From assembly GCA_030019415.1 (NCBI GenBank), contig JASEEX010000007.1:1-62486 (forward strand): a stretch of DNA of 62,486 nucleotides, in the 5' to 3' direction. This stretch comes from Thermodesulfovibrionales bacterium. Lineage in GTDB: Bacteria; Nitrospirota; Thermodesulfovibrionia; Thermodesulfovibrionales; SM23-35. The position numbers and the translations under genes are program-made. Below, in pieces: positions 28,487-62,486 of the stretch. Below the pieces are notes generated by a model. It had not been told where the DNA came from, did no database searches, and saw only the letters and a program-made list of their open reading frames with translations. Within the stretch, counting starts at the first letter, position 1; every line of letters starts with the position of its first letter.

Positions 28487-28501
28487 ATAGGGGGATTAAA
28501 A

Positions 28502-29716
28502 ATGGAAAAGTATAGATTCAATACAATTGACGAAGCCATAGAGGATATAGCAAAGGGCAAAATGGTTATCCTTGTTGACGATGAGGATAGGGAAAACGAG
28601 GGTGACCTGTGTGTGGCAGCAGAGATGGTAACACCGGAGGCGATCAACTTCATGGCAAGGTACGGAAGGGGTCTCATCTGCCTTTCCCTTACCGTAGAGC
28701 GAGTAGAAGAACTAAAGCTCCCGATGATGACGGCTGACAACACATCACCTTTTGGCACTGCCTTTACAGTCTCGATAGAGGCCAAAAAAGGCGTCACAAC
28801 AGGCATCTCAGCAGCAGACAGGGCAACGACGATACGGACTGCTATCGACCCGAAAACAAGACCGGAAGACCTTACAAGACCGGGTCATGTATTCCCCCTG
28901 AAGGCAAGGCCAGGTGGTGTGCTTCAAAGGGCAGGACAGACAGAGGGCTCTGTTGATTTAGCAAGGCTTTCAGGGCTTTATCCAGCAGGTGTTATCTGTG
29001 AAATAATGAATGATGATGGGACAATGGCAAGGGTCCCCGAGCTTATGGAATTTGCAAAAAAACATAATCTCAAGATAGTCACAATAAAGGACCTTATCGG
29101 ATACAGGATGAGGACAGAGTTATTTGTAAAAAGGTTCGTAACGGTAAAACTGCCAACGGAATATGGCGGCGAGTTTAATGCTATAGCTTATACCAATGAT
29201 ATTGACGACAATATTCATGTTGCCCTGGTTAAAGGTGAAATCAAACCAGAAGATGAGGTCCTCGTCAGGGTCCATTCTCAGTGCCTTACGGGAGAGGTCT
29301 TCGGTTCAAAGAGATGCGACTGTGGAGAACAGCTACACAGGGCAATGGAGATGGTTAAGAGAGAAGGCAAAGGGGTTATCCTCTATATAAGGCAGGAAGG
29401 CAGAGGCATTGGTTTGATAAACAAGCTGAAGGCATATGAGCTGCAGGATAAGGGTCTTGACACTGTTGAGGCTAATATCAAGCTCGGTTTCAGGCCTGAC
29501 CTCAGAGACTATGGCATTGGTGCGCAGATACTTGTTGACCTCGGTGTGAGGAAGATGAGACTTATGACAAACAATCCGAGGAAGATCATCGGACTCGAGG
29601 GGTATGGCCTTAAGGTGGTTGAAAGGGTCCCTATAGAGGTAAGGCCACATGAAAAAAATATTATCTACCTCAAAACAAAGAAGAAGAAGTTAGGGCATAT
29701 GCTTGATAATGTGTAA
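28502..29716 (+). CDS. ribBA: bifunctional 3,4-dihydroxy-2-butanone-4-phosphate synthase / GTP cyclohydrolase II
   Basis: [10 protein letters not shown] (DHBP synthase) and CDCG...GRGIGL (GCH II) motifs. The ATG at 28502 has an AGGGGG RBS. Confidence 0.9.
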
Positions 29717-30706: not shown

Positions 30707-31425
30707 TGCCCTATGCCGTGCTTTCTGATGTCCACTCAAATCTCGAGGCCCTCGAGACCGTTCTAAAAGATATGGATCAAAGGAAGATAGAGGATGTATT
30801 ATTTCTTGGAGATGCAGTAGGATACGGCCCTAACCCGAATGAATGCATTGAGCTTCTCACAAACAGATGTGAGATCATGCTTGCCGGCAACCACGATTGG
30901 GGGGTACTCGGACTAACAGATATCGCATACTTCAATGTATATGCAAGGGCAGCGATAGAGTGGACAAAGCGTGTGCTCACAGAAAAGAATCGCAAAACCC
31001 TTAGATCCTTCCCTGTTAAAAAAGAAATGGGAGATATACTTCTTGTGCATTCGACCCCGAAGGAGCCGGAGGAGTGGCATTATCTACTCACACTCTGGGA
31101 TGCAGAGATAAATTTCCATTATTTCGACAACAAATTCTGTTTCCTCGGGCATAGCCATCAGCCGTTTATTATAGAGAGGCTCCCGTCAGGAGAGCTTGTC
31201 ACATATAAGGAGGCAGCTTCTATAGGAAAAACGGAGAGATACATAATAAACGCTGGAAGTGTCGGTCAGCCCAGGGATGGGAACCCGGAGGCATGCTATG
31301 CGGCTGTTGATGATGAAAAGATGGAGATAGTAAGGGTTCCCTATGATGTAGGGTCAGTACAGAAGATGATGATAAAAGAGGGCCTACCTTCATTACTTAT
31401 AGAAAGACTTTCAAGCGGAAGATAA
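30706..31425 (+). CDS. metallophosphoesterase
   Basis: SDVHSN, GDAVGYGP, GNHD and GHSH metal-binding motifs. Confidence 0.75.
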   Translation: MPYAVLSDVHSNLEALETVLKDMDQRKIEDVLFLGDAVGYGPNPNECIELLTNRCEIMLAGNHDWGVLGLTDIAYFNVYARAAIEWTKRVLTEKNRKTLRSFPVKKEMGDILLVHSTPKEPEEWHYLLTLWDAEINFHYFDNKFCFLGHSHQPFIIERLPSGELVTYKEAASIGKTERYIINAGSVGQPRDGNPEACYAAVDDEKMEIVRVPYDVGSVQKMMIKEGLPSLLIERLSSGR

Positions 31426-31464
31426 ACCACGAGCAAGATAGATCAAAAAGGAGGAAAACAAACT

Positions 31465-32148
31465 ATGCAGGGTGCAATAATGAAAGGATCAAAAACAATA
31501 TTGTTAACTTTTATCTTTTTAGGGGTGATAGGAAGTTTTAGTGATGCCTATGCAATACAATTAGGAACAGCGGAATTAGAAATAGAGCCTTATCTAAGAG
31601 GAGGAACAATTGCATGGGACCAGCTTGGTGGTATAGGGGGTCATAAATCTTTAATTGCAGGTGGTTTAAATACTAATGTCAAATTTAATTCTTTTGGTTC
31701 AGGAATCAGTCTTGAAAAATGGTGGGTGGCTGAGGGATTAGACGATGATAAAGGAATTATACCCAGGGAAGGCTACAGTATTTATGGAGATATTAAATAT
31801 TACTTTAAGACTAATGGTATTTTGTTTTATCCCTATGCCGGTGTTGGTTTCGAAGAGTGGGAAAAAGGAGAAACATGGCAAACCTAGAAATCTCTGAAAT
31901 TTTATAATTTTGCAGTTGGGATGGGGATAGAAAATGAAAAAGGTTATATAAAAGCCGGGATAACAAGACCTTTTTCTGCAAGAACCCAGAATGATCTCAA
32001 GCCGAAATTTAGGTATGGTTTCTCTGCAGAAGGCGGAATAAAATTGAAAGCCTTTCTTATAGGTTTATTTTACAGATATTCGGGATTTGAAGACCCGGAT
32101 TCCAAAATGACCCAGAGCGGGTTATTTATAGGGTACAGATTTAAATAG
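31465..32148 (+). pseudogene. small outer-membrane beta-barrel protein gene interrupted by one in-frame TAG (31885-31887)
   Basis: ORFs 31465-31887 and 31921-32148 share a frame with no other stop between them. The joined product has a signal peptide, alternating beta-strand pattern and a C-terminal ...FIGYRFK. Confidence 0.5.
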
Positions 32149-32207
32149 GAGATGGAGTTATTTCTTGGAAGCTCCGCGATAAGGCCTTAAAGATATGATA
32201 TAGTATA

Positions 32208-32327
32208 GTTGTGAACTAAAAGATGTAGATAGTGAGGGTACCCAATGATGTTGAGAGTGTACAGAAGAAGATGAGAAAAGAGGGTTTGCCATCCTTACTG
32301 ATAGAGAGGCTTGCGATAGGTGGATAA
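32208..32327 (+). pseudogene. decayed duplicate of the 3' end of the metallophosphoesterase gene
   Basis: Translates as ..K M * I V R VPNDVESVQKKMRKEGLPSLLIERLAIGG*, against EKMEIVRVPYDVGSVQKMMIKEGLPSLLIERLSSGR* at 31306-31425. It has in-frame stops. Confidence 0.75.
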
Positions 32328-32374
32328 CCAATCAGTAATAATAACATTTGCTTCCTGCTATTTTGGGATAAATT

Positions 32375-34564: not shown

Positions 34565-35304
34565 AAGAGCCTGTAATTATATTTAACGATGTAAGCAAAA
34601 GCTATCCTCTGTATCACCATCTCACAGGGGGGATTAAAAACTTTCTCTTCCACCTTCCAAGAGGGATAAACTCTTTAAAGAATTCAAGATTTGAAGCTCT
34701 CCGTGATATATCTTTTGAGGTCTGCAGAGGAGAAACCTTTGGCATAATAGGCAGAAATGGTGCTGGCAAGAGCACCACATTAGGACTTATTGCAGGTGTT
34801 TTAAAGCCAAGCAAAGGCAGAGTGATAGTAAAAGGCAGGATTTCACCTCTTCTTGAGCTTGGGGCAGGGTTTCATCACGAGCTTACAGGAAAGGAGAATA
34901 TCATGCTCAATGGTGTCCTTATGGGACTTACGAGGGCGGAGGTCTCAAGGAAAATGAATGAGATCATCGAGTTTTCCGAGCTTCGTGACTTTGTAGACCA
35001 GCCCATCAGGACGTATTCAAGTGGCATGCTTGCAAGGCTCGGATTTTCCATTGTGGCACACCTCGAACCCGAGATTTTGCTGATTGATGAGATTCTGGCT
35101 GTAGGAGATATGGGATTTCAAAAGAAGTGCATTGATAAGATGATGGGTTTTAAGAAGAGTGGCGTTACAATGGTTTTTGTATCGCACTCTATGGAGGATA
35201 TAGGAAGGATATGCGACAGAGTGATGTGGATAGAGAATCACACTGCCAGGATGCTGGGAGAGCCCAAGGCTGTTATTGCAGGTTATACGGGAAATAGTCA
35301 ATGA
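34561..35304 (+). CDS. wzt: polysaccharide export ABC transporter ATP-binding protein (no C-terminal carbohydrate-binding extension)
   Basis: Walker A GRNGAGKST, signature YSSGMLARL, Walker B LLIDE. ATGA overlap with wzm. Confidence 0.85.
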   Translation: MKEPVIIFNDVSKSYPLYHHLTGGIKNFLFHLPRGINSLKNSRFEALRDISFEVCRGETFGIIGRNGAGKSTTLGLIAGVLKPSKGRVIVKGRISPLLELGAGFHHELTGKENIMLNGVLMGLTRAEVSRKMNEIIEFSELRDFVDQPIRTYSSGMLARLGFSIVAHLEPEILLIDEILAVGDMGFQKKCIDKMMGFKKSGVTMVFVSHSMEDIGRICDRVMWIENHTARMLGEPKAVIAGYTGNSQ

Positions 35305-35415
35305 CAAATGAGGATGAGTGATTTGATATGATTCCTAAGGGAAGGATAAATAAAAACAGAAGAGATAAAATTTTTCGGATCATGCCATTATGAAAATAAA
35401 AAGAAGGACTGAGAA

Positions 35416-36297
35416 TTGACGGATATAAAGGAAAATATTATTGGAAAATTGAAAGCTTTACCCATTAAGGTGAAGGCTGCTGCTATTTATGGCTCTTGGG
35501 CAAAGGGTGCACAGAAGAAAGACTCAGACCTTGATATATTGTTGATTTCAGATGAGATTAATCCAAGAAGGCATAAAAGGGGTAGAAAAATTGCTGCCAT
35601 CAAAGAATGGCTTTTATTGGACTTTCCATTGGATATTTTGTTACTGACAACAAAAGAGTGTCTCTCAAATTTCAAAAATCATAATCCCCTCTTTCTGGAT
35701 ATTGCATGGGAGGGTATCATTCTGTTGGATGAGGATGATTTCTTGAAATCTTTGATTGAAGAAACGAGGGTGTACATATCCGAGAGAGGGATCAAGAAAC
35801 TTGACGATGGTTGGAAATTTCCCGTACTTGATAGAAAGGCAGTGTTACTTTCTAAGGTGAGTAATGAGGACTTCGCAATAGCAATGCTTATAGATGGAGA
35901 AAGGGATTTTAAGATTGGCACGAGCATTATGAATAATGGTTATTATGACAAAGCGGTATATCATTTTCAGCAGTCTGTAGAGAAAGCGGTAAAGGCTGTC
36001 TTGATATGTTTCGGGATATTCAAAAAGACTCATTTTGTTGGAGAGATACTGAATAAAGAACTTGGGGAAAGAAAACTCAATAAAGACTGGAGGGAAAAAC
36101 TCATGCAGATCGCAAGGGTGAGTTCTGAAGTAGAGCCAGAGGTAACCTGGAGCCGTTACCCAGGAATGGACGAAGGTACTTTATGGATTCCATATAAAGA
36201 ATATACTGTTGATGATGCAAACGAGGTTAAAGAGAAATGCGGGAAAGCAATCAGGGCAGCAAGGGAATTTATTGAATGGTGGTTCGGAGATAAGTAG
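35416..36297 (+). CDS. fused nucleotidyltransferase (MNT-like) plus HEPN domain protein
   Basis: N-terminal GSWAKG...DSDLDILL NTase motif. C-terminal HEPN-like helices (YYDKAVYHFQQSVEKAVKAVL ... SRYPG). TTG start with an AAGGA RBS. Confidence 0.7.
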   Translation: MTDIKENIIGKLKALPIKVKAAAIYGSWAKGAQKKDSDLDILLISDEINPRRHKRGRKIAAIKEWLLLDFPLDILLLTTKECLSNFKNHNPLFLDIAWEGIILLDEDDFLKSLIEETRVYISERGIKKLDDGWKFPVLDRKAVLLSKVSNEDFAIAMLIDGERDFKIGTSIMNNGYYDKAVYHFQQSVEKAVKAVLICFGIFKKTHFVGEILNKELGERKLNKDWREKLMQIARVSSEVEPEVTWSRYPGMDEGTLWIPYKEYTVDDANEVKEKCGKAIRAAREFIEWWFGDK

Positions 36298-36310
36298 ATG
36301 GTTGAGGATA

Positions 36311-36554
36311 GCACATTTGGCCTTGAAATCTTATTAATGACGAGATTCTGGCTGAAAGATATAGAGTTTCAGAAAAGTGCATTGATAAAATGATGGGATT
36401 TAAGAAAAGTGGGGTTACAATGGTTTTTGTATCGCACTCTATGGTTGATGTGGAGGGGATATGCGACAGGGTGATGTGGATAGAGTCGCATACCATAAAA
36501 ATGATAGGAGAGCCCAAGGTTGTTGTAGCGGGTTATAATAAAATTATAATATAA
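36311..36554 (+). pseudogene. wzt 3'-end remnant, copy 2
   Basis: Translates LINDEILAERYRVSEKCIDKMMGFKKSGVTMVFVSHSMVDVEGICDRVMWIESHTIKMIGEPKVVVAGYNKIII*, colinear with the Wzt C-terminus. I counted 4 mismatches in a 70-nt core against 35125-35194. Confidence 0.85.
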
Positions 36555-36746
36555 CATAGGGACAACGTTATTTTTCTTGACCCTATTGACTGGATGAAAA
36601 TGAACGAGAAGATTATGCTAAATTTCTCTAAAAATATGGGGGGCGTGTCCCTTTATTAATTATTCTGAGCTGTGAAACGACAGATTAAGTTAAATATATA
36701 GTGGGACTGCAGCCTTTAGCTTAAGAATAACAATAAGGAGGAGAAT

Positions 36747-37085
36747 ATGCCTTTTGATACCTCTTTATGGGAAAAGATTATCGAGAGGAAATATACTGAG
36801 AGGGAAAAGATAAGGATAGAGACCCTTGATACTTTGATCATGAAACTCAGGGATTATTTCACCCACAAAAAGGTGAAAGGGGTTTATATAATAGGCTCAG
36901 TTTTAAAAGAAGGGGCGTTTTATGATTTTTCAGATATAGATATTGCTGTAGATGGTTTTTCAGATGATTATTTCAGGGTTTCAGCAGAGCTTGAGGATCT
37001 TGTTAGTAGAGAAATAGAGTTGATTGAGCTTGAGAAATGTAAATTTAAAGAGAGTATTGAAAAATACGGCTTGAGGGTGTTATGA
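36747..37085 (+). CDS. MNT-type nucleotidyltransferase (antitoxin-like)
   Basis: GSVLKEG...FSDIDIAV NTase motif, 112 aa. It overlaps the next ORF (ATGA). Confidence 0.75.
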   Translation: MPFDTSLWEKIIERKYTEREKIRIETLDTLIMKLRDYFTHKKVKGVYIIGSVLKEGAFYDFSDIDIAVDGFSDDYFRVSAELEDLVSREIELIELEKCKFKESIEKYGLRVL

Positions 37086-37549
37086 AGATAGAAGCTATTG
37101 CATTGTTAATGGGCTATTTAGCAGATCAGAAAGAGGAGATAGGTAAACTCTTTGGAGAGATAAAAAACACCGAGCCTGCAGGCAATGTGAAAACAGTTTA
37201 CCTGGGCTATTTCCTGCATAACCTTTATTGTGCCTTTGAAGACTTATTTAAAGAGGTAGCAAGGACCTTTGAAAATCAGATAAATGACTCCTCCATATAC
37301 CACAGAGAACTTCTAAAGAGAATGACTCTTGAAGTTCCAGGAATAAGACCGCCATTTTTATCGAAAGAGAGTTATAAAATCCTTGATGAATTGAGAAGAT
37401 TTAGACACACCTTTAGACATGCTTACACATATGAACTTGACTCAACAAAGGTCAACGATCTAAAGCAGAAAACCCTCTTGGTCTGGGACAATATAGAATC
37501 AGATATAAGAAACTTTGAGCAGTTTTTAAAAGACAAAATGAAGGAGTAA
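37082..37549 (+). CDS. HEPN/HepT-like protein (toxin-like partner)
   Basis: LRRFRHTFRHAY contains RxxxxH-type motifs. It is all-helical, 155 aa, and translationally coupled to the MNT gene. Confidence 0.55.
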   Translation: MKIEAIALLMGYLADQKEEIGKLFGEIKNTEPAGNVKTVYLGYFLHNLYCAFEDLFKEVARTFENQINDSSIYHRELLKRMTLEVPGIRPPFLSKESYKILDELRRFRHTFRHAYTYELDSTKVNDLKQKTLLVWDNIESDIRNFEQFLKDKMKE

Positions 37550-37571
37550 TGTGTAGTTTTTGCGGTTATGT

Positions 37572-37757
37572 GAATTTCAGAAAAAGTGTATTGATAAAAT
37601 GATGGGCTTTAAAAAAAGCGGAGTTACAATGGTTTTTGTTTCACATTCTATGACGGATGTAAAGAGGATATGTGATAAGGTGATGTGGATAGAAAACCAT
37701 TCCATAAAAATGACTGGAGAACCCGAGGTTGTTATTAAAGCCTACAGTGGGCTATAA
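37572..37757 (+). pseudogene. wzt 3'-end remnant, copy 3
   Basis: EFQKKCIDKMMGFKKSGVTMVFVSHSMTDVKRICDKVMWIENHSIKMTGEPEVVIKAYSGL* is colinear with the Wzt C-terminus. It lacks the Walker A, signature and Walker B motifs. Confidence 0.85.
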
Positions 37758-41144: not shown

Positions 41145-41150
41145 ACAGGG

Positions 41151-41309
41151 GATTTACCCCGCACCAGCAGAAAGCTACGGGTGTAAACCTGTGGATGAAA
41201 GGTAAAAATATCCCGAGTGGTGCGGGATTTACCCCGCACCAGCAGAAAGCTACGGGTGTAAACCTGTGGATGAAAGGTAAAAATATCCCGAGTGGTGCGG
41301 GATTTACCC
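41151..41309 (+). repeat. 75-bp tandem repeat, 2.1 copies, containing the pseudopilin start codon and leader
   Basis: Units 41151-41225 and 41226-41300 read as identical, and the third copy stops after gatttaccc. Each unit begins TTTACCCCGCACC and ends GGTGCGG (internal inverted repeat). Confidence 0.9.
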
Positions 41310-41683
41310 TCGTCGAGATCCTTATTGTTATCAGCATCGTTGGAATTATGTTGTCTGTTGTCATGCCCGTTTCTTATTCCATGTATAAGACTTATCAAGA
41401 ATCGCTTGAAGCAGAGAAGGTACTGATCTTCCTCTCATCTTTAAAAAGAGAGTCTTTTCTTTATAGCAAGGAGAGCCTTGTAGATACCAAAGACGGTAAG
41501 CTGGTAGTGGACGGTAGTGAAAAAAGGGAGTTTAAGGATATATTTATCCATGCAGAAAGACCCATACTATTTTATAAAAACGGCACGACCTCTGGCGGCA
41601 AATTACGCTTAAACATGAAGAGTAATATATTTCTCATTGGTATTGATCCCCCCTTAGGAGAGATGAGACTAACAAGACAGTGA
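41270..41683 (+). CDS. GspH-like minor pseudopilin
   Basis: MKGKNIPSGAG/FTLVEILIV prepilin signature. The ATG at 41270 is preferred over the GTG at 41141. Confidence 0.65.
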   Translation: MKGKNIPSGAGFTLVEILIVISIVGIMLSVVMPVSYSMYKTYQESLEAEKVLIFLSSLKRESFLYSKESLVDTKDGKLVVDGSEKREFKDIFIHAERPILFYKNGTTSGGKLRLNMKSNIFLIGIDPPLGEMRLTRQ

Positions 41684-48103: not shown

Positions 48104-48233
48104 AAAACCTGTTGACAGGCGTTGTTAGTTAATATAAGCTTTCATAAGAGGTCACACTTGTCCAAAATAAATTTTCTTTGACAGCATATGGAAATCAGAA
48201 GGGAAGATATAATAGCATGTTGTTTTTATGTCG

Positions 48234-48317
48234 TCATTCCTGCGGAGGCAGGAATCCAGTATTTTTAACAATTTCTCATTGCTGTGTTTCTGGATTCCCG
48301 CTTTCGCGGGAATGACC
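48234..48317. repeat. inverted pair of GTCATTCC-hairpin-GGAATCCAG units (MITE-like)
   Basis: gtcattcctgcggaggcaggaatccag ... ctggattcccgctttcgcgggaatgac. Same architecture as 56582-56651. Confidence 0.7.
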
Positions 48318-48478
48318 GGAATGGTGATTTGTTTTGGACAGCATTTGTAAATAAAGGTAACCTGATTTTAGAATCGGAGCAAGTCTGCCCAAAAAGCTAT
48401 AAATTTCAAGAGGTTATTATTAAATGAGTAGATTTTTCAGATTATTTTGGACAGCAATGATAAGAGGTATGAAAATAA

Positions 48479-50944: not shown

Positions 50945-53900
50945 ATGAAAATTCTGATAATCACTGAAAATTTCAGAACAGGCGGTCTTGAGACCCAGAT
51001 AATGGGATTTTGTAGATATCTCAAAAACTCAGGACATGAGGTTTATCTCATCTCAGGTATTGGGAGCAGGACTTTTCCCCTCAAGGAGATTATTGATAAA
51101 AATATCCTTGAGGTGGATATGAGACCTGATTTACCCACAAAAGAGGCGATTGATTCAATAAACAGGACAGTCTCCTTTATCAAGGATATAGACCCTGATG
51201 TTCTTCATCTCCATCCATTTACAAGCATCATCTATGGAGGCATTGGAGCGGCAGTCCTTCAAAAACCCTATGTTATTACACTTCATGGGCCGTTGAGTCT
51301 CACCTATGGTTACAACCCCTCGTATCGTTTATATATCGACCTGATACTTAAAGATGCCTGGCGTGTGTTTTGTGTTTCAGAGGAGGTTGCCCAAAGGGTA
51401 AAGGACATTGTCCCTGATTGCAATTTAAGTATACTCCCCAATGGAGTTGATACAGAAAGATTTATACCGGTCCAGAGAGACCCTGATGGTCCAGTGGCCT
51501 TAGTTGCCAGGATCGATTCTGATAAGATTCCAGGAATAAAATCCTTTTTAACAGAGTGGTCAAAATTGCCACGTAGTCTTAGGCAGACTATTCATATCTT
51601 TGGAGAAGGCAATTCCGTTGAAGAACTTAAAAACTGGGTGAAGGCTAACTTAAACGGAGGAACATGGGTAACATTCATGGGGCATGAAGATAATCTCCAT
51701 GAACGACTTAAGAGAGGTTATTCTTTGGTAGCTGGGATGGGGAGGGTTGTGCTTGAGGCCGCAGCCATGAATCTGCCAGTGATTCTTGTTGGGTACAGTA
51801 GACCTAATGGCCCGGTTAGTGTGGATAATTGTAATCAACTCTTTTACAGGAATTTCTCCGGCCGATATACCTCTGTAATTAATAATGTAGAAAAACTTAA
51901 AGAGGAGCTATCAGAACTTGAAACTTCACCGGAACGGTTTTTACTCCGTTCGTGGGTTGTAGAAAATGCCGATGAGAAAAAGATTCATGCCGGATACCTA
52001 CAAGAGGTTAAAAATGCAAAACAGGTGAATTACAGATGGCGAGAGGCCTTTTTGTCATCTATCGGAGAAGCAGAGGATATATCATTATTTGGGGATAAAG
52101 TGTTTCATTGCCTCCTTAATAATCTCCCGCAAGATCAGGTAAATTCCAATTGGGTAAATCTTTTTCTCAGTGACAAGATAAACTGGGCAATTACAGAAAA
52201 GAATTCATTAGGTAGCCAGCTAAACCAGACAATTGCAGAAAAGGATAGCCTCCAACATCAATTTAACCAGATGTTAGTAGAGAAGGAGGCATTAGGTAGC
52301 CAGCTAAACCAGACAATTGCAGAAAAGGATAGCCTGTGGAATCAGCTAAACAACATATATACAAGTGATTTCTGGAAGGCGGCGAGTTGGTATTATAGGG
52401 TGAGAGACAAAAATCCAATTTTAAGGTTTTTCTATCTTAATGCAAAGAAATTTAAATCGACGATTAAGAATAAAAACTATCTTTTTTACCTTTCAAAATT
52501 TCAGAATTATTCGAAGCAATATGGCATAAGAAAAGCTTTGAAGATGACCTTCTGCAAGCTTACAAATAGTTCTTTTGTTACAGAATCGGAACGAGGCACA
52601 TTCAAGGAAAAAGACCGCAATACAGATAGGGTTTTTACGGATATAAAAAGACCTAAAGCAAAAACAGAACTAAAGAATATAATTGAAAGTCATAAACATG
52701 TTAAGGGAGTTATATTGTATAAATCTTTTCTTGACTGGAATTTTCCTCTTTTCCAGAGACCTCACCAGTTGAGCATTGCCTTTGCAAAAAATGGTTTTTT
52801 GGTCTTCTACTATTCCCCAAATTGGGAGTATGATAATTATACTGGTTTCAGTAAGATCATGGATAATCTTTTAGTATTTCATGAGGATCTTGATATATTT
52901 AATTCTATCGACAATTATATAGTCTTTCTAAATTGGAATGCCTTTGATGACCTTGCTCCATTTAAGAAACCGAAGATGATTATTTATGACTATCTTGATC
53001 ATATAGAATTACTGGATGTTTATAATGAAAAGATCTTACAGAATCATATTGAGACAATAAAAAAAGCTGATATTGTTACGGTTACGGCAGAAGACCTCTA
53101 TGATGAGGTGAAACAGTATAGGGATAAAGTCATTTTATGTCCTAACGCTGCAGATGTCGAGCACTTTAGAAATAGTAAAAAAGAAATCCCGCATGATATC
53201 AAAAGATTGGTGGAATCAAAAAAACCTATTATTGGTTATTATGGCGCCCTCGCCCGTTGGTTTGACTACGAGCTTCTTAAGTACTGTGCATCCCGTAAAC
53301 CTAATTATAACTTTCTCCTCATTGGTTATGATTACGATGGAAGTTATAAAAAGTCGGGTATTCATTTATATGAAAACGTAATCCGTATTGATCCAGTTCA
53401 TTATAGTGTTTTACCACAATACCTTCAATATTTTGATGTGGCAACGATATCTTTTGTTGTAGATGATATTACTTCTGCGACATCACCGATTAAACTCTTT
53501 GAATATGCAGCCCTACGGAAGCCGATTGTAACTACTGATTTGCCTGAGTGCAGGAAGTACAGAGCTGTTTTGATTTCGCATTCTTTCGAAGAATTCCTTA
53601 ATAATATTGACAGGGCGCTTAAACTTAAAGATGACCCTGATTATCTCAAGGAGCTAGATAAGTTAGCAGAAGATAATACATGGGATTCGAGAGTTAAGCT
53701 GATTATAGATGGAATCGAAAAGAAAGGACTGGATAGGCCATGGGAAACAGTACAATGCAGACAGAGTTCATATGATATCATCAACTTTCCTATTATGCCA
53801 TGGGATTCGAGGATACAAAGGTCACAACAGTTGATAAGACAATTTGCCAAAAAAGGGTCAAGGATTTTTCGCATAAATACAAATTTTTCCTCAAACACTT

Positions 53901-55618
53901 ATAGTCTGGTGAAGATCGATGCTAATGTATTCCACTTGACTTTAGATAAAGACATCAAATTGAATATCTTTACTGATGTGATCGACGATGTGAATCTTCT
54001 AAGGATGATTCATTCCCTTGACGTGTTTTTTAGAAATGAGTTTATTCCAGCCCCTCCAATTTGTATTGTTGAACTTCCCTTCTGGTCTTCTATCGCAGAA
54101 TATCTTAAAAAGAGATATAACTGCAAAATCATTTATGACTGTATGGACGAGCACTCAGGATTTTCTACCAATTCAGAAAAAATGTTGGAATTTGAAAAAG
54201 AATTGGCAAAACTCTCAGACGCTATCATTGTAAGTTCAAAAAAGCTTTTTGATAAGATGAAGGAGCTCAATAACCAAACCATTGTAATAAACAATGCAAC
54301 CGATTTTGATCATTTCCACCGGCTAAAGGAAAATGACCTCCTAAAAGACTACAAAAAACCGATCGTCGGCTACTTTGGCGCAATTTCTGACTGGTTCGAT
54401 ATAGAGACTATTGAGTATGCAGCAAAAAAGAAAGAGGATTGGACATTTATTCTTATTGGTAGTACATTCGGGGCTGATATAAGCCGAGCGACAAAACTCT
54501 CAAATATCCATTTCCTTGGTGAAAAGCCTTATTCCGAACTCTCTCAATATCTTTACTGGTTTGATGTTTGCCTGATACCAATGAAACTCAACAAACTCAC
54601 AGAAGCAACGAACCCTGTGAAGTTTTTTGAGTATATCAGTTCAGGCAAACCGGTAGTTTCTGCAAAACTTTTGGAGCTTGAACCATACGGAGACATACTC
54701 TATTTTTATAAAACAAAGGAAGATTTCGTTTTACAGACAGAAAAAGCTCTTGAAGAGAAAGACCTAAATTTGATAGAGAAAAGAATTGATATCGCCAGAC
54801 AGAACACATGGGAAAAACGTTTTGTGGAATTTGACCAATTGATAAGGAATATTTTTCCTAAGGTTAGCATTATTTTAATTACTTACAATTGTTTAGATTT
54901 CACAAAGTTATGTATTAACAGCATCTATACTAACTCTAAATACCCAAATTTCGAAATAATAATTGTAGACAATTGCTCAGGGGATGGCACAGTGGAATAC
55001 CTTAAGCATTTATTAAGCCAGAAGGACAACGTTAAGGTCATTTTCAACGAAAAAAATTATGGATTTGCATATGCTAACAACCAAGGCATAAAACTGGTAG
55101 AAGGTGAATATGTCATATTTCTTAATAACGACACTGTTGTAAGCCCAGGATGGATATATAGGCTGTTAAGACATTTAGAAAGTAAAAAGGTTGGTATGGT
55201 TGGTCCTGTCACAAACAGTAGCGGAAACAAAGCACAAATTACTGTTTCTTACAATGTTAAGACATTGGAAGGTTTCGATAAATTCACTGAAAAATATCTA
55301 AGAGACCATCCAGAGTCTGAGTTTTTTGAAATCAAGATGCTTGGCCTGTATTGTGTTGCTATGAGAAAAGGGGTGCTTGACGAAGTTGGGGTGCTTGATG
55401 AGCGTTTCAGTATAGGGAGCTTTGAAGATGACGACTTTGCAAACAGGGTAAAATTGAGAGGTTATAGGATTATTTGCGCCCGCGATATATTTATTCATCA
55501 TTTTGGAAGTGCAACTTTTGGCAAACTCGCTACACAGGAATTACAGAGTATCTACAATAGAAATAAACTTAAATTTGAAGAAAAATGGGGTTCTCGCTGG
55601 GAACCGGATCTGGATTAA
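50945..55618 (+). CDS. 1557-aa multidomain glycosyltransferase: GT4-like, coiled coil, two GT-B (group 1-like) modules, GT2
   Basis: N-terminal MKILIITENFRTGGLE GT4 start. Coiled coil at about aa 411-472. Paralogous modules with PIIGYYGALARWFD...KLFEY and PIVGYFGAISDWFD...KFFEY. C-terminal GT2 (VSIILITYN, DNCS.DGT, NND, FEDDDF). Confidence 0.8.
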   Translation: MKILIITENFRTGGLETQIMGFCRYLKNSGHEVYLISGIGSRTFPLKEIIDKNILEVDMRPDLPTKEAIDSINRTVSFIKDIDPDVLHLHPFTSIIYGGIGAAVLQKPYVITLHGPLSLTYGYNPSYRLYIDLILKDAWRVFCVSEEVAQRVKDIVPDCNLSILPNGVDTERFIPVQRDPDGPVALVARIDSDKIPGIKSFLTEWSKLPRSLRQTIHIFGEGNSVEELKNWVKANLNGGTWVTFMGHEDNLHERLKRGYSLVAGMGRVVLEAAAMNLPVILVGYSRPNGPVSVDNCNQLFYRNFSGRYTSVINNVEKLKEELSELETSPERFLLRSWVVENADEKKIHAGYLQEVKNAKQVNYRWREAFLSSIGEAEDISLFGDKVFHCLLNNLPQDQVNSNWVNLFLSDKINWAITEKNSLGSQLNQTIAEKDSLQHQFNQMLVEKEALGSQLNQTIAEKDSLWNQLNNIYTSDFWKAASWYYRVRDKNPILRFFYLNAKKFKSTIKNKNYLFYLSKFQNYSKQYGIRKALKMTFCKLTNSSFVTESERGTFKEKDRNTDRVFTDIKRPKAKTELKNIIESHKHVKGVILYKSFLDWNFPLFQRPHQLSIAFAKNGFLVFYYSPNWEYDNYTGFSKIMDNLLVFHEDLDIFNSIDNYIVFLNWNAFDDLAPFKKPKMIIYDYLDHIELLDVYNEKILQNHIETIKKADIVTVTAEDLYDEVKQYRDKVILCPNAADVEHFRNSKKEIPHDIKRLVESKKPIIGYYGALARWFDYELLKYCASRKPNYNFLLIGYDYDGSYKKSGIHLYENVIRIDPVHYSVLPQYLQYFDVATISFVVDDITSATSPIKLFEYAALRKPIVTTDLPECRKYRAVLISHSFEEFLNNIDRALKLKDDPDYLKELDKLAEDNTWDSRVKLIIDGIEKKGLDRPWETVQCRQSSYDIINFPIMPWDSRIQRSQQLIRQFAKKGSRIFRINTNFSSNTYSLVKIDANVFHLTLDKDIKLNIFTDVIDDVNLLRMIHSLDVFFRNEFIPAPPICIVELPFWSSIAEYLKKRYNCKIIYDCMDEHSGFSTNSEKMLEFEKELAKLSDAIIVSSKKLFDKMKELNNQTIVINNATDFDHFHRLKENDLLKDYKKPIVGYFGAISDWFDIETIEYAAKKKEDWTFILIGSTFGADISRATKLSNIHFLGEKPYSELSQYLYWFDVCLIPMKLNKLTEATNPVKFFEYISSGKPVVSAKLLELEPYGDILYFYKTKEDFVLQTEKALEEKDLNLIEKRIDIARQNTWEKRFVEFDQLIRNIFPKVSIILITYNCLDFTKLCINSIYTNSKYPNFEIIIVDNCSGDGTVEYLKHLLSQKDNVKVIFNEKNYGFAYANNQGIKLVEGEYVIFLNNDTVVSPGWIYRLLRHLESKKVGMVGPVTNSSGNKAQITVSYNVKTLEGFDKFTEKYLRDHPESEFFEIKMLGLYCVAMRKGVLDEVGVLDERFSIGSFEDDDFANRVKLRGYRIICARDIFIHHFGSATFGKLATQELQSIYNRNKLKFEEKWGSRWEPDLD
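52206..52335 (+). repeat. 46-bp perfect direct repeat with 84-bp period inside the coiled-coil segment of the giant GT
   Basis: cattaggtagccagctaaaccagacaattgcagaaaaggatagcct at 52206-52251 and 52290-52335. It encodes LGSQLNQTIAEKDSL twice, 28 aa apart. Confidence 0.9.
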
Positions 55619-55624
55619 CTTGAA

Positions 55625-55778
55625 ATGAATAAACTTTTTTCATTTTCGGTACTCGTCCTGAGGCCATAAAGATGGCTCCACTGATATTAAAGGCAAGTGC
55701 TAACGCCTCATTTAATGTCGGGCTCTGTGCTACAGGACATCACGATGAGATGCTCCAACAGGTTTTGGATTTCTCAGG
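55625..55778 (+). pseudogene. frameshifted remnant of the wecB 5' end
   Basis: atgaataaacttttttcattttcggtactcgtcctgaggccat... is colinear with 56758-56910 of intact wecB. One missing nt near the start gives an early TAA. Confidence 0.85.
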
Positions 55779-56014
55779 AAAGATGTCTGAGTTATGCTCT
55801 TTCAACTAAGAACTATTCGTTCCCCGAAATTTGGATAGGAGATTAAACGCATTAATTTACCTTGTCATTAGATTACTTGGAAGGTAAATGGCAACTTTCT
55901 ACCAACGGATCTGGGTACTCTGTTTAGGGAGATACACTAAAGCCATCTGTGATATAATATAATCTACTTTACGTATAAGTACTGAAATAAATCACAGAAC
56001 AATGAGGAAACCCT

Positions 56015-56350
56015 ATGTCAGGGGGTAAGAAGTCATATAGCGATACCATAGTTGAGAGATTTTTATCTATGATTTCACCTTTAGGGGAAAATATAAAGGA
56101 GATGTATCTATTTGGTTCAAGATGTCGGGATGATTGGCGACCTGATTCAGATTTCGATTTTTTAATTGTTGTTAATAGAAAGGACAGAGAGTTTACCAGT
56201 AAACTATATGATGCAGTCATGTACATACTCCTTGATACAGGCAGGTTAATATCCCTTAAGATTTTCACAGCCTCTGAGTTTAACCGCCTGAAGTCAATTC
56301 CTACCCCTTTCATGCATAGTGTCACTAAGGAGGGTATAAGGCTTATTTAA
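56015..56350 (+). CDS. MNT-type nucleotidyltransferase
   Basis: LFGSRCRDDWRPDSDFDFLIVV NTase motif, 111 aa. Confidence 0.75.
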   Translation: MSGGKKSYSDTIVERFLSMISPLGENIKEMYLFGSRCRDDWRPDSDFDFLIVVNRKDREFTSKLYDAVMYILLDTGRLISLKIFTASEFNRLKSIPTPFMHSVTKEGIRLI

Positions 56351-56351
56351 A

Positions 56352-56519
56352 AAGGATATCGGGAAATATCTTGCTAATCTGAAGGATGAAAGGGAGAGTG
56401 GAGATTATGAGGTATTTTCTTATATAGACAGAGAGACTGCAGAAACCGCAATAGAGGAAGCAAGAGAGTTTATTAGAGAAAGTAAGGCATATTTGAGAAA
56501 CATTACCTTAATAGATTAG
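56352..56519 (+). pseudogene. C-terminal fragment of a HEPN-domain gene (no start codon)
   Basis: Manual translation KDIGKYLANLKDERESGDYEVFSYIDRETAETAIEEAREFIRESKAYLRNITLID*. It looks like a HEPN C-terminal half (R..GDY ... EA..F). The frame is closed 4 codons upstream with no initiator. Confidence 0.6.
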
Positions 56520-56581
56520 TTCTGAACTTTTTAGATATTAATACAAAAGTATTAAGTAAATTGGCATAAACATATAGTGTT

Positions 56582-56651
56582 GTCATTCCCGCGCAGGCGG
56601 GAATCCAGTTTTATCAGTATTCTTCTGGATTCCTGCTTTTGCAGGAATGAC
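56582..56651. repeat. inverted pair of GTCATTCC-hairpin-GGAATCCAG units (MITE-like)
   Basis: gtcattcccgcgcaggcgggaatccag ... ctggattcctgcttttgcaggaatgac. Confidence 0.7.
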
Positions 56652-56754
56652 GAGAAATGTAATATTATTAATTAATTTCGTTTGTATTAAATATACAAAG
56701 GCCTTTTGCAAGGTCTTGTTTTTGTACCTGATTCGGGTTTAATATTGTAGAGAA

Positions 56755-59139: not shown

Positions 59140-59261
59140 ATAATCTGAATTCATAAGCAATATAAAAAATATAAACATCATGACCTATAGAAAGAGCAAG
59201 GGTTTGGATACCATCTGTGACGGTATTTTGAAGGGTACCGATTTTATTTTTCCCTAAAAAT

Positions 59262-60332
59262 ATGATCGCTATAAATTCACGTTTTTTAACTCAAAAAGTC
59301 TCCGGCGTTCAACGATATGCTATAGAGATATCGAAACAACTCAAAAAATTGTATCCTGAAACAAGATTTGCTGCGCCTAAAAATATCATTCATAGAGAAC
59401 TGGCCGAGCGTTTAGAAGCTGTAGAGTATGGAACACTAACGGGGCATCTGTGGGAACAAATAGAGCTTCCAAAATATTTAAAGGAAAATAACAACCCATT
59501 GCTTATAAATTTGGCGAATACTGCCCCTTTGTCTTATAACAATCAGATAGTCACGATTTGTGACCTTTCTTTTTTGAGAAATCCAAAATGGTTCTCAAAG
59601 AAATTTTATTTTTACTATAAATTTCTGATACCACGAATAGCCAAAAACTCTTTAAAAATTATTACGATCAGTGAATTCTCAAAAAATGAGATAATAGAGT
59701 TACTTGATGCCCGTGAAAGTAAGATTAAAGTCATTCATTGCGGAGGTGCTGAAGAATTTGCCAATCTTATAGACAACGATTCAGTAATTGATTATAGAAC
59801 CAAAAAATACATATTATCAGTTTCCACATTAGGTCCAAGAAAAAATCTTGAAAGTCTAATTTTGGCCTTTCGAAAATTAAAGGTACCTGATATCCAATTG
59901 ATAATCGTCGGATCAAAAAATAACAATTTTGCAAACAATAACTTAAAAAATCTGATAAATGCTGACAAAAATATTATTTTTACTGGATATATTTCAGATA
60001 TAGAGTTAGTGTCTCTATATAGAAATGCCATGTTATTTGTTTACCCCTCTCTTTACGAAGGATTTGGTCTTCCGCCTTTGGAGGCCATGGGTTGCGGAGT
60101 GCCTGTTGTAGTTTCCAACGTTGCAAGCCTGCCTGAGATATGTGGTAATGCAGCGTATTATGTTGATCCATATAATGTGGAAAGTATAGCTGAAGGGATA
60201 TATAAAGTGTTGACTGATGAACCGCTTCGGCAAAGCCTGATCAAAAAAGGACTTGAGAGAGTTAAGCTTTTTAGCTGGGAAAAGTCGGCAAAAGAGCATA
60301 TTAAAGTTTTTGAAGAGGTTTTGAATAGTTGA
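59262..60332 (+). CDS. family 4 (group 1) glycosyltransferase
   Basis: YPSLYEGFGLPPLEAMGCGVPVVVSN E-x7-E motif. Confidence 0.85.
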   Translation: MIAINSRFLTQKVSGVQRYAIEISKQLKKLYPETRFAAPKNIIHRELAERLEAVEYGTLTGHLWEQIELPKYLKENNNPLLINLANTAPLSYNNQIVTICDLSFLRNPKWFSKKFYFYYKFLIPRIAKNSLKIITISEFSKNEIIELLDARESKIKVIHCGGAEEFANLIDNDSVIDYRTKKYILSVSTLGPRKNLESLILAFRKLKVPDIQLIIVGSKNNNFANNNLKNLINADKNIIFTGYISDIELVSLYRNAMLFVYPSLYEGFGLPPLEAMGCGVPVVVSNVASLPEICGNAAYYVDPYNVESIAEGIYKVLTDEPLRQSLIKKGLERVKLFSWEKSAKEHIKVFEEVLNS

Positions 60333-60428
60333 AGGTCGATAATTCAGCTTATAATCATCTTATCCATCTGATAAAACATGGTATACTATTTCACTTTGAG
60401 GCTCTCGTCAGGAGAGTTTAAGAACTAA

Positions 60429-60866
60429 ATGATTATGCGTAAAAGAAGATTATCCGGAGAAGAGAGAGGCTACCTGATTGAAAGGATTGCTGCTATCCTG
60501 AAAGAAAAGGAATATGTTCTCTTTGCCTATATCTTTGGCTCTTTTGCTTCAGGAGAAAGTTTTAATGATATAGATGTCGGCATCTTTATCTCTGGGGAAA
60601 GGCTTAACTCCCCGCTAAGGCTGGAATTGGAGATGGAAAGGGAGTTAGAGGATGCTGTCCGTATCCCCGTAGATATTAGGATCATCAACAATGCACCGCC
60701 GTCTTTTATCTATAATGTCTTAAAAAGCGGGCTTGTGATTGTGGATAACAATAAATCGCTTAGGGCTGACTTTGAAGGGTTGGTCTACAAAAAATATTTT
60801 GATTTTCAACATCTAAGAAATGAATATTTAAGAGAGATTATAAATGCCCCTCTTCAATCCAGATAA
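60429..60866 (+). CDS. mntA: MNT-type nucleotidyltransferase antitoxin
   Basis: FGSFASGESFNDIDVGIF NTase motif. It overlaps the downstream HepT-like ORF. Confidence 0.8.
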   Translation: MIMRKRRLSGEERGYLIERIAAILKEKEYVLFAYIFGSFASGESFNDIDVGIFISGERLNSPLRLELEMERELEDAVRIPVDIRIINNAPPSFIYNVLKSGLVIVDNNKSLRADFEGLVYKKYFDFQHLRNEYLREIINAPLQSR

Positions 60867-61278
60867 AATAGCGAGATTAGTTTCTGAGATGCGTAAGGCT
60901 ATAAGTCGTTTGAAGTCCCTCGGAACCATTGACAAAGAATCATTCTTAAATGATCCTGATAAAATAGACAGTGCAAAGTATAATTTTGTTATCGCAATAG
61001 AATCTTCCATTGATATCTGTAATCACATTATATCTCAGAATAGCTATAGAGCTCCTGAGGATTATGCAGATACCTTCCAGGTCTTAGGAGAACATGGAGC
61101 CTTTGACAAAGACTTTGTTAAAGATTTAAAGGAGATGGCGAGGTTCCGAAATAGATTAATCCATTTGTACTGGGAGGTGGACGATGAGCAGGTATATGAA
61201 ATTCTACAATCCGGACTTGAGGACTTTAAAACTTTTATGGACAGAATAGCGGCATTTTTGAAATTGGAGAAGCTTTAG
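60844..61278 (+). CDS. hepT: HepT/DUF86-type HEPN toxin
   Basis: RNRLIHLY (R-x4-H HEPN motif), 144 aa, classic two-gene MNT-HepT layout. Confidence 0.8.
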   Translation: MPLFNPDKIARLVSEMRKAISRLKSLGTIDKESFLNDPDKIDSAKYNFVIAIESSIDICNHIISQNSYRAPEDYADTFQVLGEHGAFDKDFVKDLKEMARFRNRLIHLYWEVDDEQVYEILQSGLEDFKTFMDRIAAFLKLEKL

Positions 61279-61337
61279 TTCTTAACCGAAACATAAAGAG
61301 TAATCGGTGGATAGAGCATTCTTAAATTTTCTTGCGA

Positions 61338-61424
61338 GAAGGTCTTGAAAGGGCAAAGCTTTTTAGCTGGGAAAAATCAGCTAAAGAGCATCTTAAGGTC
61401 TTTGAAGAAGTTTTAATGGTTTAA
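61338..61424 (+). pseudogene. remnant of the GT4 gene 3' end, copy 2
   Basis: Translates EGLERAKLFSWEKSAKEHLKVFEEVLMV*, against KGLERVKLFSWEKSAKEHIKVFEEVLNS* at the end of 59262-60332. Confidence 0.85.
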
Positions 61425-61540
61425 TTGGTTGGATTGATCAGAAAAATTGATAAATGGTCATTGCATCATGGTGAGGCAGTTAAAGTTATGTCTTGTAAAG
61501 ATTCTGAATGGTATAGTAAAATTCTCTATAGAGGCAGCAT

Positions 61541-61825
61541 ATGAAGACCGAAGAGCTAAAGATCAGATATCCAAGCGGGTTTGAACATTCTGTGCATATG
61601 ACGAAGGAAGAAATGGAACAACATATACGTTTAATGGCTGCACTTAAGATGTTTGAACTCGGCAAAATATCTTCAGGAAAGGCTGCTGAGCTTGCAGGTA
61701 TGTCACGGGTGGAATTCTTTGAGGTATGTGGGAGGTATCGCGTTGGTATTTTCAATTATCCGGCTGAGGAAGCCGAGAAAGAAATCAGAAAGGATTTAGA
61801 GACTGCAAGGAAAATCAGCAGTTAA
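61541..61825 (+). CDS. UPF0175-family antitoxin-like protein
   Basis: LKMFELGKISSGKAAELAGMSRVEFFEV HTH-like core typical of UPF0175. It abuts the DUF3368 gene. Confidence 0.7.
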   Translation: MKTEELKIRYPSGFEHSVHMTKEEMEQHIRLMAALKMFELGKISSGKAAELAGMSRVEFFEVCGRYRVGIFNYPAEEAEKEIRKDLETARKISS

Positions 61826-62316
61826 TGAAGATTATTTCTAACACGGGTCCAATTATTGGGCTGGCCAAGATAGATTCTCTTCCCATTCTTAAAGAAATTG
61901 CTTCAGAGGTATTAATTCCACCCATGGTTCATAGAGAATTACTGGGGAAAATCGGGATCGAATCTGAAAGGATAGACAAGGCATTGAATGATTTTATTCG
62001 TGTAGCCGAATTAAATCCTCTGGATTCAGTGACCATAGAGATATTGGCTGATTTGGACGAAGGTGAAAGGCAAACAATTGGACTTGCTTCAACGTTTTCT
62101 GAAGATGTGCTTTTATTGCTTGATGATCGCGTGGGGAGGTTGGCTGCTGAAAAATTGAATATACCAACAACAGGTTTAATCGGAATTTTATTGCTGGCAA
62201 AAGAAAAAGGCATTCTGGAAAATATTCGTTCACTTATAGATAATCTGAGAAAACAGGGATATTGGATTTCTGATGAAGTGGCGGATACTGCCAAACGTCT
62301 TGCAGAGGAGAAGTAA
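61825..62316 (+). CDS. DUF3368-family PIN-like protein (toxin-like partner)
   Basis: ISNTGPIIGLAKI N-terminus and TGLIGILLLAKEKGIL...LRKQGYWIS C-terminus typical of DUF3368. Confidence 0.7.
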   Translation: MKIISNTGPIIGLAKIDSLPILKEIASEVLIPPMVHRELLGKIGIESERIDKALNDFIRVAELNPLDSVTIEILADLDEGERQTIGLASTFSEDVLLLLDDRVGRLAAEKLNIPTTGLIGILLLAKEKGILENIRSLIDNLRKQGYWISDEVADTAKRLAEEK

Positions 62317-62344
62317 GATCAGGAATCTGCATTTAAACTCGTAG

Positions 62345-62486
62345 CCTGTTTCCTTTTTTATGTTTGTGGTCTCCAATGTCGCAGGTCTTTCCAAGGTTTG
62401 TGGTGATGTAGTGTATTATGTTGATCCATAAAATGTGGAAAGCATTGCCATAAGGTGCTCACGGATGACACTTTACGACAGAGTCT
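62345..62486 (+). pseudogene. remnant of the GT4 gene 3' region, copy 3 (runs off the window)
   Basis: Colinear with about 60100-60240 (...VVSNVA..CG.A.YYVDPYNVESIA...KVLTD..LRQSL). It has TAT>TAA at DP*NVES and an indel before KVLTDDTLRQS. Confidence 0.8.

Follow-up and report, generated by a model that had tools for sequence, protein, structure and literature searches.

We analyzed a 62,486-nucleotide (nt) stretch of DNA from a Thermodesulfovibrionales bacterium (GenBank assembly GCA_030019415.1, contig JASEEX010000007.1, positions 1 to 62,486), hereafter the window, in which the 3' end of an intact gene for a GT4-family glycosyltransferase (GT) is repeated twice downstream of that gene, with a different pair of toxin-antitoxin (TA) genes, or cassette, in front of each copy. 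In metagenome contigs nearly identical to the window over the second of these cassettes, the array continues through a further TA pair and a further copy of the gene end to gmd, the gene that lies directly beside the GT gene at related, empty sites. Sequence comparisons make it probable, in our view, that duplicative insertion driven by recombination ("insertion with long target duplication") built the array in successive events at a single site, and that the repeats then recombined with one another by homology. For recombination at the repeats the comparative evidence is good: besides the repeats themselves, the data contain empty and variably filled versions of the site, an old junction shared between loci, a discordance between the divergence of the cassettes and that of their surroundings, and a conversion tract.

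Gene-end copies and toxin-antitoxin cassettes at the GT4 gene

The array occupies the end of the window and consists of the GT gene, cassette A (mntA/hepT), remnant 1, cassette B (UPF0175/DUF3368) and remnant 2, as follows:

59262..60332, forward strand: intact GT4 glycosyltransferase gene, 356 aa, whose 3' part is the repeated sequence
60106..60240, forward strand: segment of the GT gene colinear, by alignment, with the visible remnant 2
60247..60332, forward strand: segment of the GT gene repeated as remnant 1, the last 28 codons plus stop
60333..60428, forward strand: leader of cassette A, 96 nt from the GT stop to the mntA start
60429..60866, forward strand: mntA, type VII antitoxin, nucleotidyltransferase, 145 aa, motif GSFASGESFNDIDVG
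60844..61278, forward strand: hepT, HEPN RNase toxin, 144 aa, motif RFRNRLIH
61279..61338, forward strand: spacer of cassette A, 60 nt, conserved together with the GT-remnant joint in metagenome locus L073 and in a peat-metagenome contig
61339..61424, forward strand: remnant 1, the final 28 codons and the stop of a GT allele
61425..61540, forward strand: leader of cassette B, 116 nt, identical to the sequence directly 3' of the intact GT gene in contigs L001-L003
61541..61825, forward strand: UPF0175-family putative antitoxin, 94 aa (PF03683 at 2.5e-22, 78.8 bits)
61825..62316, forward strand: DUF3368-family putative toxin, 163 aa (PF11848 at 7.4e-14, 51.8 bits)
62345..62486, forward strand: remnant 2, a pseudogene, 3' fragment of the GT gene that starts at about residue 277-283 and is truncated where the window ends

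The GT4 protein carries a C-terminal Glycos_transf_1 domain (PF00534, E=1.4e-40, 139 bits) and an N-terminal GT4 domain (PF13439, 30.1 bits) by Pfam. Remnant 1, whose translation is EGLERAKLFSWEKSAKEHLKVFEEVLMV followed by a stop, aligns to 60247-60333 with 84% identity over 76 ungapped nt and one 1-nt indel near the stop, and its local alignment score of 97 compares with 21.9 ± 2.7 in 500 shuffles (z=28). For remnant 2, positions 62364-62448 are 79% identical to 60106-60190, the visible copy runs to 62486 (at least 123 nt), and the local alignment score is 80 compared with 19.6 ± 2.3 in shuffles (z=26). This copy begins 44 nt past the DUF3368 stop, and the homology may begin near 62343 if a 13-nt insertion is allowed. 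A TAT codon of the GT gene (60171-60173) corresponds to a TAA stop at 62429-62431 in remnant 2, and a 10-nt deletion after 62448 shifts its frame.

Every element that an earlier note on this DNA, made from its letters, had observed here was confirmed, namely GT4 3'-end copies separated by cassettes, the end of the intact gene at 60332, the match of remnant 1 to the last 28 codons, the TAT to TAA change and the indel in remnant 2 (for which its start of 62345 is acceptable), and the two TA pairs in the intervals, whose coordinates and profile matches agree. The note had made its case dependent on formal homology of the remnants, which the shuffles bear out, and on remnant 2 being a fragment rather than part of a complete paralogous GT gene; remnant 2 covers only about GT residues 283-356 and was never found within a full GT gene.

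The MntA product matches the Pfam Polbeta profile (2.3e-19) and the NCBIfam MntA equivalog (69.1 bits, cut-off 60), and the HepT product matches Pfam HepT-like (6.6e-35) and the NCBIfam HepT equivalog (130.5 bits, cut-off 60). The two genes overlap by 23 nt, and the translations contain both the GSx10DxD motif of MntA and the Rx4H motif of HepT, so that a minimal nucleotidyltransferase (MNT) with GSx10DxD stands directly 5' of a HEPN toxin with the Rx4-6H signature. As judged by profile, gene order and catalytic motifs, the pair matches the type VII TA systems. In such systems the toxicity of HepT is neutralized through AMPylation catalyzed by MntA. In cassette B both matches exceed the Pfam cut-offs, and the stop of the UPF0175 gene and the start of the DUF3368 gene overlap as ATGA; these adjacent genes are a putative TA pair in one operon. 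Both pairs resemble known type VII MntA/HepT and UPF0175/DUF3368 (COG2886/COG2405) pairs in profile, gene order and catalytic motifs, and nothing out of the ordinary was noticed in the proteins; what is new is their setting in the genome.

Each cassette measures about 0.9-1.0 kb and has no genes other than its TA genes. Intragenomic copying of one cassette was considered and rejected, since the cassettes of the window share an amino acid identity of 36% at most and are not paralogues. Neither cassette A nor cassette B had a match in plasmid and phage collections. Scans for promoters and terminators gave counts at shuffle expectation; no terminator-like site was found within 60333-62486, which makes read-through to gmd plausible.

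The earlier note had also supposed that the array may continue past the window. Contigs 98-99% identical to it over cassette B (L001 and L005), on which the extension rests, bear this out and reach gmd. The alignment of L001 (4.8 kb) begins exactly at window position 61339 and extends to 62436 at 98.6% identity, after which the contig continues with remnant 2 as a 76-codon in-frame GT tail (2933-3163; 231 nt), a third, unrelated MNT/HepT pair (cassette C, 3277-4079), a fourth GT-tail copy at about 4226-4310 ending in ...FSREKSAEEHMKIFEEILKS and a stop, and finally a ribosome-binding site and the start of gmd at 4335. In this contig the sequence that is remnant 1 in the window (94% identical) forms the live 3' end of an intact GT gene, which is 85% identical in nucleotides to the GT gene of the window over its whole length. 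L005 tracks the window to 62471 and has the same TAA stop in remnant 2 with a different indel. Within its remnant 2, 67 nt have been deleted between two 9-nt GTTTTTGAA repeats (L005 1090-1100 compared with L001 3146-3212), which removes the stop of the remnant; from the position of these repeats, the deletion is microhomology-mediated decay.

Samples were seen to contain more than one variant of the strain, and the repeats interrupt Logan unitigs, so that one could imagine a metagenome assembly chimera in which the repeats of co-existing strains joined contigs into a stack that is in no single genome. We find this barely credible. The repeats are 75-85% identical, with identical runs of 20 nt or less that are too short to mislead an assembler, and the same junctions occur in independent ENA, JGI and Logan assemblies, where the exact DUF3368 protein is present on 7 independent metagenome contigs. 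The short Logan contigs L004, L177 and L221 represent material of the same strain, and L004 is 100% identical to the window over 60270-62461, that is, across the GT tail, cassette A, remnant 1, cassette B and remnant 2. The order of the parts is therefore not an assembly artefact of the window contig.

Variation at the site and evidence of recombination

A pattern scan for the conserved GT-tail stretch yielded 35 metagenome loci. The site is known in empty, singly filled and multiply filled versions, in agreement with the strain-variable cassette content that the earlier note had proposed to look for at this gene. The site is empty in 8 of the 35 loci (L062, L065, L068, L069, L088, L091, L093 and L096), in which the gmd ATG lies about 20 nt past the GT stop and the sequence reads ...GAAGAAGTTTTAAGTTTATAAAAAAGGAGAAGTCAnATG. 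In L001-L003, cassette B is directly 3' of the GT gene and cassette A is absent. In the groundwater run X5, a contig with a depth of 21 joins the GT body (last aligned position 60221) to a tail resembling remnant 1 (from 61344), and this form without cassette A dominates, with cassette A at a depth of 0-5 over most of its length. Elsewhere, the cargo between GT and gmd is a 276-aa S-adenosylmethionine (SAM) methyltransferase (L064, L082 and L086), this methyltransferase with a GT-tail remnant of 150 nt behind it (L071 and L074), a VapBC-like pair (L072) or a homologue of cassette A (L073).

Filled loci related to the window usually carry a remnant of the GT end, 28-230 nt in length; at the methyltransferase loci a remnant of about 28 nt, with the native ribosome-binding site, still precedes gmd. 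The joint positions vary, lying about 28, 86, 150 and 230 nt before the GT stop. The remnant adjoining gmd keeps the empty-site sequence and its ribosome-binding site, and the live GT tail adjoins cassette-specific sequence. Additionally, directly upstream of an intact gmd in L067 (1134-1400), a 5' fragment of gmd (MKEALITGMRGLEGAYFD…) runs into a 3' fragment of the GT gene that contains an internal stop, a composite fossil that indicates a duplicative event across the GT-gmd junction.

Genuine tandem GT4 paralogues do exist in related loci (L073, L080 and others), which lends some color to the idea that several full-length GT4 genes once stood here, lost their 5' parts and received TA pairs in the resulting gaps. 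This decay of paralogues is very unlikely given the survey: the remnants are always the extreme 3' end only (down to 28 nt), each immediately after a cargo; empty sites have a single GT gene; the short remnant and joint of cassette A are conserved across lineages; and in L001, which has a single GT gene, remnant 1 corresponds to the live tail. Furthermore, a wzt gene, a metallophosphoesterase gene and the 5' end of wecB, elsewhere in the window, would need the same coincidence, four times in all.

The copies of cassette B in the window, L001, L005 and X5 share 99.5-99.8% identity, whereas in the same comparison the adjacent GT genes are 85-90%, remnant 1 is 94% and remnant 2 is 79-88% identical. 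A divergence of 12-21% in a remnant beside about 0.3% in a flanking 890-nt coding cassette cannot be accounted for by neutral drift; the repeats, on these comparisons, are recombination breakpoints or conversion tracts. L001 moreover has an 82-nt identical run common to its GT tail and its remnant 2, beside sequence that is 70% identical, which indicates gene conversion or crossover between the repeats.

The MNT gene, the HepT gene, the 60-nt spacer and the remnant of cassette A align as one block to L073 (60434-61417 compared with 1669-684, 83.7%), a locus with a different GT repertoire in which the remnant adjoins gmd; the leader of cassette A (60333-60428) is not conserved with that copy. 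The same spacer-remnant joint occurs in a peat contig (X1 contig loose end). Since the joint is common to L073, the right joint of cassette A is old and moves along with the cassette, having been inherited or transferred rather than formed de novo. The claim of the earlier note that the two remnants came from events with different junctions is true, as they start at different points of the GT gene (nt 986 for remnant 1, about nt 845 for remnant 2), with the refinement that at least the right junction of cassette A was not made in this lineage. A joint in X1, which seemed to go back into the array, was rejected as a special joint, as it is merely remnant 2 resembling remnant 1.

Probable duplicative insertion, its precedents and its alternatives

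Under repeated duplicative insertion, gmd would have followed the GT4 stop at the ancestral site after about 20 nt that include its ribosome-binding site. An incoming block, in which cargo (a TA pair here, a methyltransferase elsewhere) follows a GT 3' part that has its own stop codon, would recombine on its left side by homology inside the GT gene, and on its right side be joined within the last 30-230 nt of the resident GT gene. The GT gene would thereby stay intact, while the resident tail would be pushed downstream as a dead fragment with the native gmd junction kept. The resulting unit of GT end, cargo and GT fragment would have GT homology at both sides, so that homologous recombination, presumably dependent on RecA, could place it before an existing array (stacking), carry it from one strain to another that has a different GT allele, remove it, or homogenize the repeats by gene conversion. 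For the window, the simplest origin would be a single event between a donor carrying ...wecB-GT423-GT-A-spacer-remnant and a recipient like L001, in which the right crossover, between the donor remnant and the live GT tail of the recipient, would set cassette A ahead of B-remnant-C-remnant-gmd. The first right-hand joint of a cassette may have arisen through one-sided homology combined with an illegitimate join; alternatively, a circle consisting of a GT-end fragment and cargo may have integrated by a Campbell-type event. In an intergenic gap of 20 nt, only duplicative insertion spares both neighbors and the ribosome-binding site, and selection would consequently filter for it. TA pairs are probably over-represented as cargo because deletion from repeat to repeat would be punished by the toxin after segregation (post-segregational toxicity), a form of addiction-based retention.

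Insertion with long target duplication is documented for restriction-modification (RM) units (Nobusato et al. 2000, Gene 259:99; Furuta, Abe and Kobayashi 2010, PMC2853133; PMC3874152), for which a cycle has been proposed that runs from insertion through amplification or loss by way of the repeats to re-invasion (PMC2853133); the review PMC3874152 attributes it to RM systems only. It is recognized by an empty site in a relative, direct repeats of >30 bp that match the target, and an insert of <20 kb without mobility genes (PMC2853133). The 8 empty loci and the forms lacking cassette A (L001-L003 and X5) provide the empty site, and the repeats (86 nt and at least 123 nt in the window, 231 nt in L001) align to the empty-site GT tail, the exception in length being some methyltransferase inserts with only about 28 nt; the cassettes are small and without mobility genes among the open reading frames (ORFs) profiled between 28.5 and 62.5 kb. 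The cargo (MntA/HepT, UPF0175/DUF3368, the SAM methyltransferase and similar genes) is not RM, and the array therefore represents a variant of the class and not a member as originally defined.

The likeness to RM units thus lies in a small addiction-type unit without mobility genes and in variable direct repeats (46-423 bp for RM, 28-230 bp here) that align to a single copy in an empty-site relative and often include a gene 3' end. Unlike RM units, the insertions described here carry type II and type VII TA pairs (in addition to a methyltransferase and a small secreted-type ORF), recur at a single site with at least 3 cassettes and four gene-end copies, and have repeats that are diverged (75-94%) and show conversion, with one joint common across lineages. 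Our literature search found no TA cassette with target duplication or with homology-facilitated illegitimate recombination.

Minimal mobile elements of Neisseria, cited in PMC3082526 and PMC1797815, are cassettes that strains swap through transformation and through homologous recombination in the conserved genes on either side. They share with our array the alternative small cassettes between conserved genes, exchanged by flanking homology without mobility genes, but they have two different flanking genes and are not known to duplicate a gene end or to stack, whereas both arms here are copies of the same gene tail.

The polarity of the array, with a live tail followed by cassette-specific sequence and the displaced native tail distal, its tandem piling in one orientation, and the stretch AAGCTTTTTAGCTGGGAAAA common to GT tails would also fit site-specific tandem accretion. 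In that case the cassettes would be miniature integrative elements, resembling cis-mobilizable elements (CIMEs) or integron cassettes, that bring a replacement GT 3' end as their att site and are inserted in trans by a tyrosine or serine recombinase encoded elsewhere, as happens at the 3' ends of tRNA and protein genes. [quoted passage not shown] The array similarly recalls chromosomal integrons in its unidirectional cassettes of about 1 kb, promoter-bearing or promoterless and many of them TA, its repeated separator and its strain-variable content, and differs from them in that no intI, attC hairpins or attI were found and the separator is a fragment of host coding sequence.

Neither class fits, as the features that define them (intI and attC in the one, a fixed core in the other) were not found, and we regard insertion of this kind as unlikely. 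The remnant start points differ by up to 200 nt, the junctions beginning at GT nt 986, at about nt 845, and about 150 and about 28 nt before the stop, which leaves no fixed crossover core; the conserved stretch encodes the GT4 C-terminal motif LFSWEK, so that protein constraint explains its conservation; and four unrelated target genes, one at its 5' end, have the same pattern without a common motif. The ORFs profiled in the 32-kb accessory region gave no recombinase domain, neither intI nor attI was found beside the array, and no cognate integrase in cis was seen among the profiled ORFs of the 62-kb window, a scope outside which an enzyme acting in trans from elsewhere would lie. At the cassettes, terminal inverted repeats did not rise above noise, attC-like inverted repeats occurred at chance level only, and Rfam gave no matches.

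Several points weigh against repeated duplicative insertion followed by recombination between the repeats. Its recombination steps are read from Logan contigs, in which none was observed directly and no reads of circle junctions or of excision were seen. The longest identical run between the GT gene of the window and its remnants is 18-20 nt only, a poor substrate for RecA, and in the window the crossover has to fall at the extreme left edge of remnant 1; the scheme also leaves the origin of the first right-hand joints unexplained. Among HepT loci of diverse genomes, flanking direct repeats were found at 5 of 38, compared with 5 of 64 control positions. Finally, distant homologues of cassette A in other genomes match only from the MNT start to the HepT stop, and since only the coding region is common to them, another process moves bare TA operons over long distances. 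Flanking long direct repeats as a general trait of HepT loci were accordingly rejected on these counts, with one further clear case (L199, described below); the process is a lineage- and context-specific route, not a universal way in which these TA pairs move.

A more speculative extension, which we hold to be possible yet doubtful, is that the repeated gene ends are not just scars but themselves serve for recombination in an integron-like cassette system that works without a recombinase, and in which TA toxicity would shield the array from repeat-mediated deletion. If true, any small selfish or accessory module with a copy of a host gene end would become a portable unit that homologous recombination can insert, stack, shuffle and exchange across strains and alleles, and there would be a concrete answer to the question of how chromosomal TA loci move without mobile-element genes. 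To our knowledge, the spread of chromosomal TA loci without transposases or integrases is poorly understood. The GT locus offers a natural series for this question, from an empty site through one cassette to three stacked, with different cargos and shared joints. Duplicative insertion as the source of the array, if correct, extends a process so far described only for RM systems to TA modules and ordinary accessory genes, can iterate into arrays, and would let tightly packed polysaccharide operons take up new genes without breaking either neighbor. For annotation, short "orphan" gene-tail ORFs beside TA pairs would be fossils of earlier alleles that mark recombination breakpoints in surface-polysaccharide loci.

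Other target genes and genomic setting

Three more genes of the window (wzt, the metallophosphoesterase gene and wecB) show this pattern, and a remnant of yet another gene lies upstream of the GT gene:

35114..37746, forward strand: wzt array, with the wzt 3' end (35114-35287) and copies at 36364-36537 (81%) and 37573-37746 (75%)
35416-36297: MNT-HEPN fusion between wzt tail copies
36747-37549: MNT/HepT-like_2 pair between wzt tail copies
31316..32338, forward strand: metallophosphoesterase case, with the 3' end (31316-31436) repeated at 32218-32338 (75%)
31465-31887: non-TA, 140-aa small secreted-type ORF between the metallophosphoesterase tail copies
55626..56754, forward strand: wecB mirror-image case, with a frameshifted wecB 5' fragment (55626-55775) and intact wecB from 56755
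59180..59257, forward strand: remnant of the 3' end of another upstream gene, 25 codons, MTYRKSKGLDTICDGILKGTDFIFP and a stop, from a gene intact in L001 (2-922)

The proposal of the earlier note that the process at the GT gene is the same as at wzt, and is not limited to one TA family, is upheld by the two further copies of the wzt 3' end with MNT/HEPN-type cassettes between them, and can be widened beyond TA cargo, as the methyltransferase and the small secreted-type ORF are also flanked. In the wecB case it is the 5' fragment that stays beside the upstream gene, and it is followed by an MNT gene (56015-56350), the truncated C-terminal half of a HEPN gene (56352-56519) and an element resembling repetitive extragenic palindromic (REP) sequences. 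The HEPN remnant, which has the C-terminal half only (…ERESGDYEVFSYIDRETAETAIEEAREFIRESKAYLRN…) after an intact MNT, is a decayed cassette with a truncated toxin. The palindromic REP-like element is present in two copies that are 80-86% identical (48229-48328 and 56578-56663, GTCATTCCnGCG...CGGGAATCCAG), the second of them within the cassette upstream of wecB, and its translation gives the familiar artefact ORFs "IPAKAGIQ" and "SFPRRRES". The upstream side of the GT gene also bears a fossil of an earlier gene arrangement, the remnant at 59180-59257, around which window positions 59156-59261 align to L001 821-926.

Outside the window, the clear case L199 is a high-GC Nitrospirae metagenome-assembled genome (MAG; JACPZO010000176.1, 3312-4533), in which an MNT/HepT pair homologous to cassette C (54% and 64% amino acid identity) sits between the 3' end of the gene for a 434-aa FAD-dependent oxidoreductase and a copy of this end (151 nt, 93% identical), with the cassette oriented opposite to the oxidoreductase gene. 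A deltaproteobacterial MAG (L201, 1615-5233) has small cassettes, among them AbrB/PIN-like and MNT/HepT ones, that are set apart by a repeat present in three copies; this repeat resembles an intergenic REP-type element more than a gene end.

The best relatives of the window are all Thermodesulfovibrionales or Nitrospirota, with RibBA (28469-29716) 95% identical to that of a Nitrospirota MAG, and the runs containing the stretch are peat, groundwater and soil metagenomes. No record was found for the GT and wzt proteins of the window themselves. Among genome contigs the best relative of the GT protein (62% amino acid identity, L008) has no remnants, and no isolate or MAG with the same locus was found there. 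The first 30 kb of the window consist of housekeeping genes without such repeats, and the accessory part from 31 to 62 kb holds genes for polysaccharides and for type II secretion; the ORFs profiled there showed no integrase or transposase domain.

Repeats of other kinds were also seen in the window. A perfect tandem duplication (2 x 75 nt, 100%) at 41149-41298 lies at the start of ORF 41141-41683, which is pseudopilin-like with an N_methyl motif, and could be recent or an assembly stutter. A 39-nt GC-rich palindromic repeat (AGGGGGnnCGTGGGGGAnACAnAGTnTCCCCCACGCACT, 87% identical) occurs at 15300-15338 and 17138-17176, around the region of an EamA transporter gene, and the gene for a 1557-aa multi-domain glycosyltransferase (50945-55618) contains an 84-nt in-frame tandem repeat (82%) at 52195-52356.

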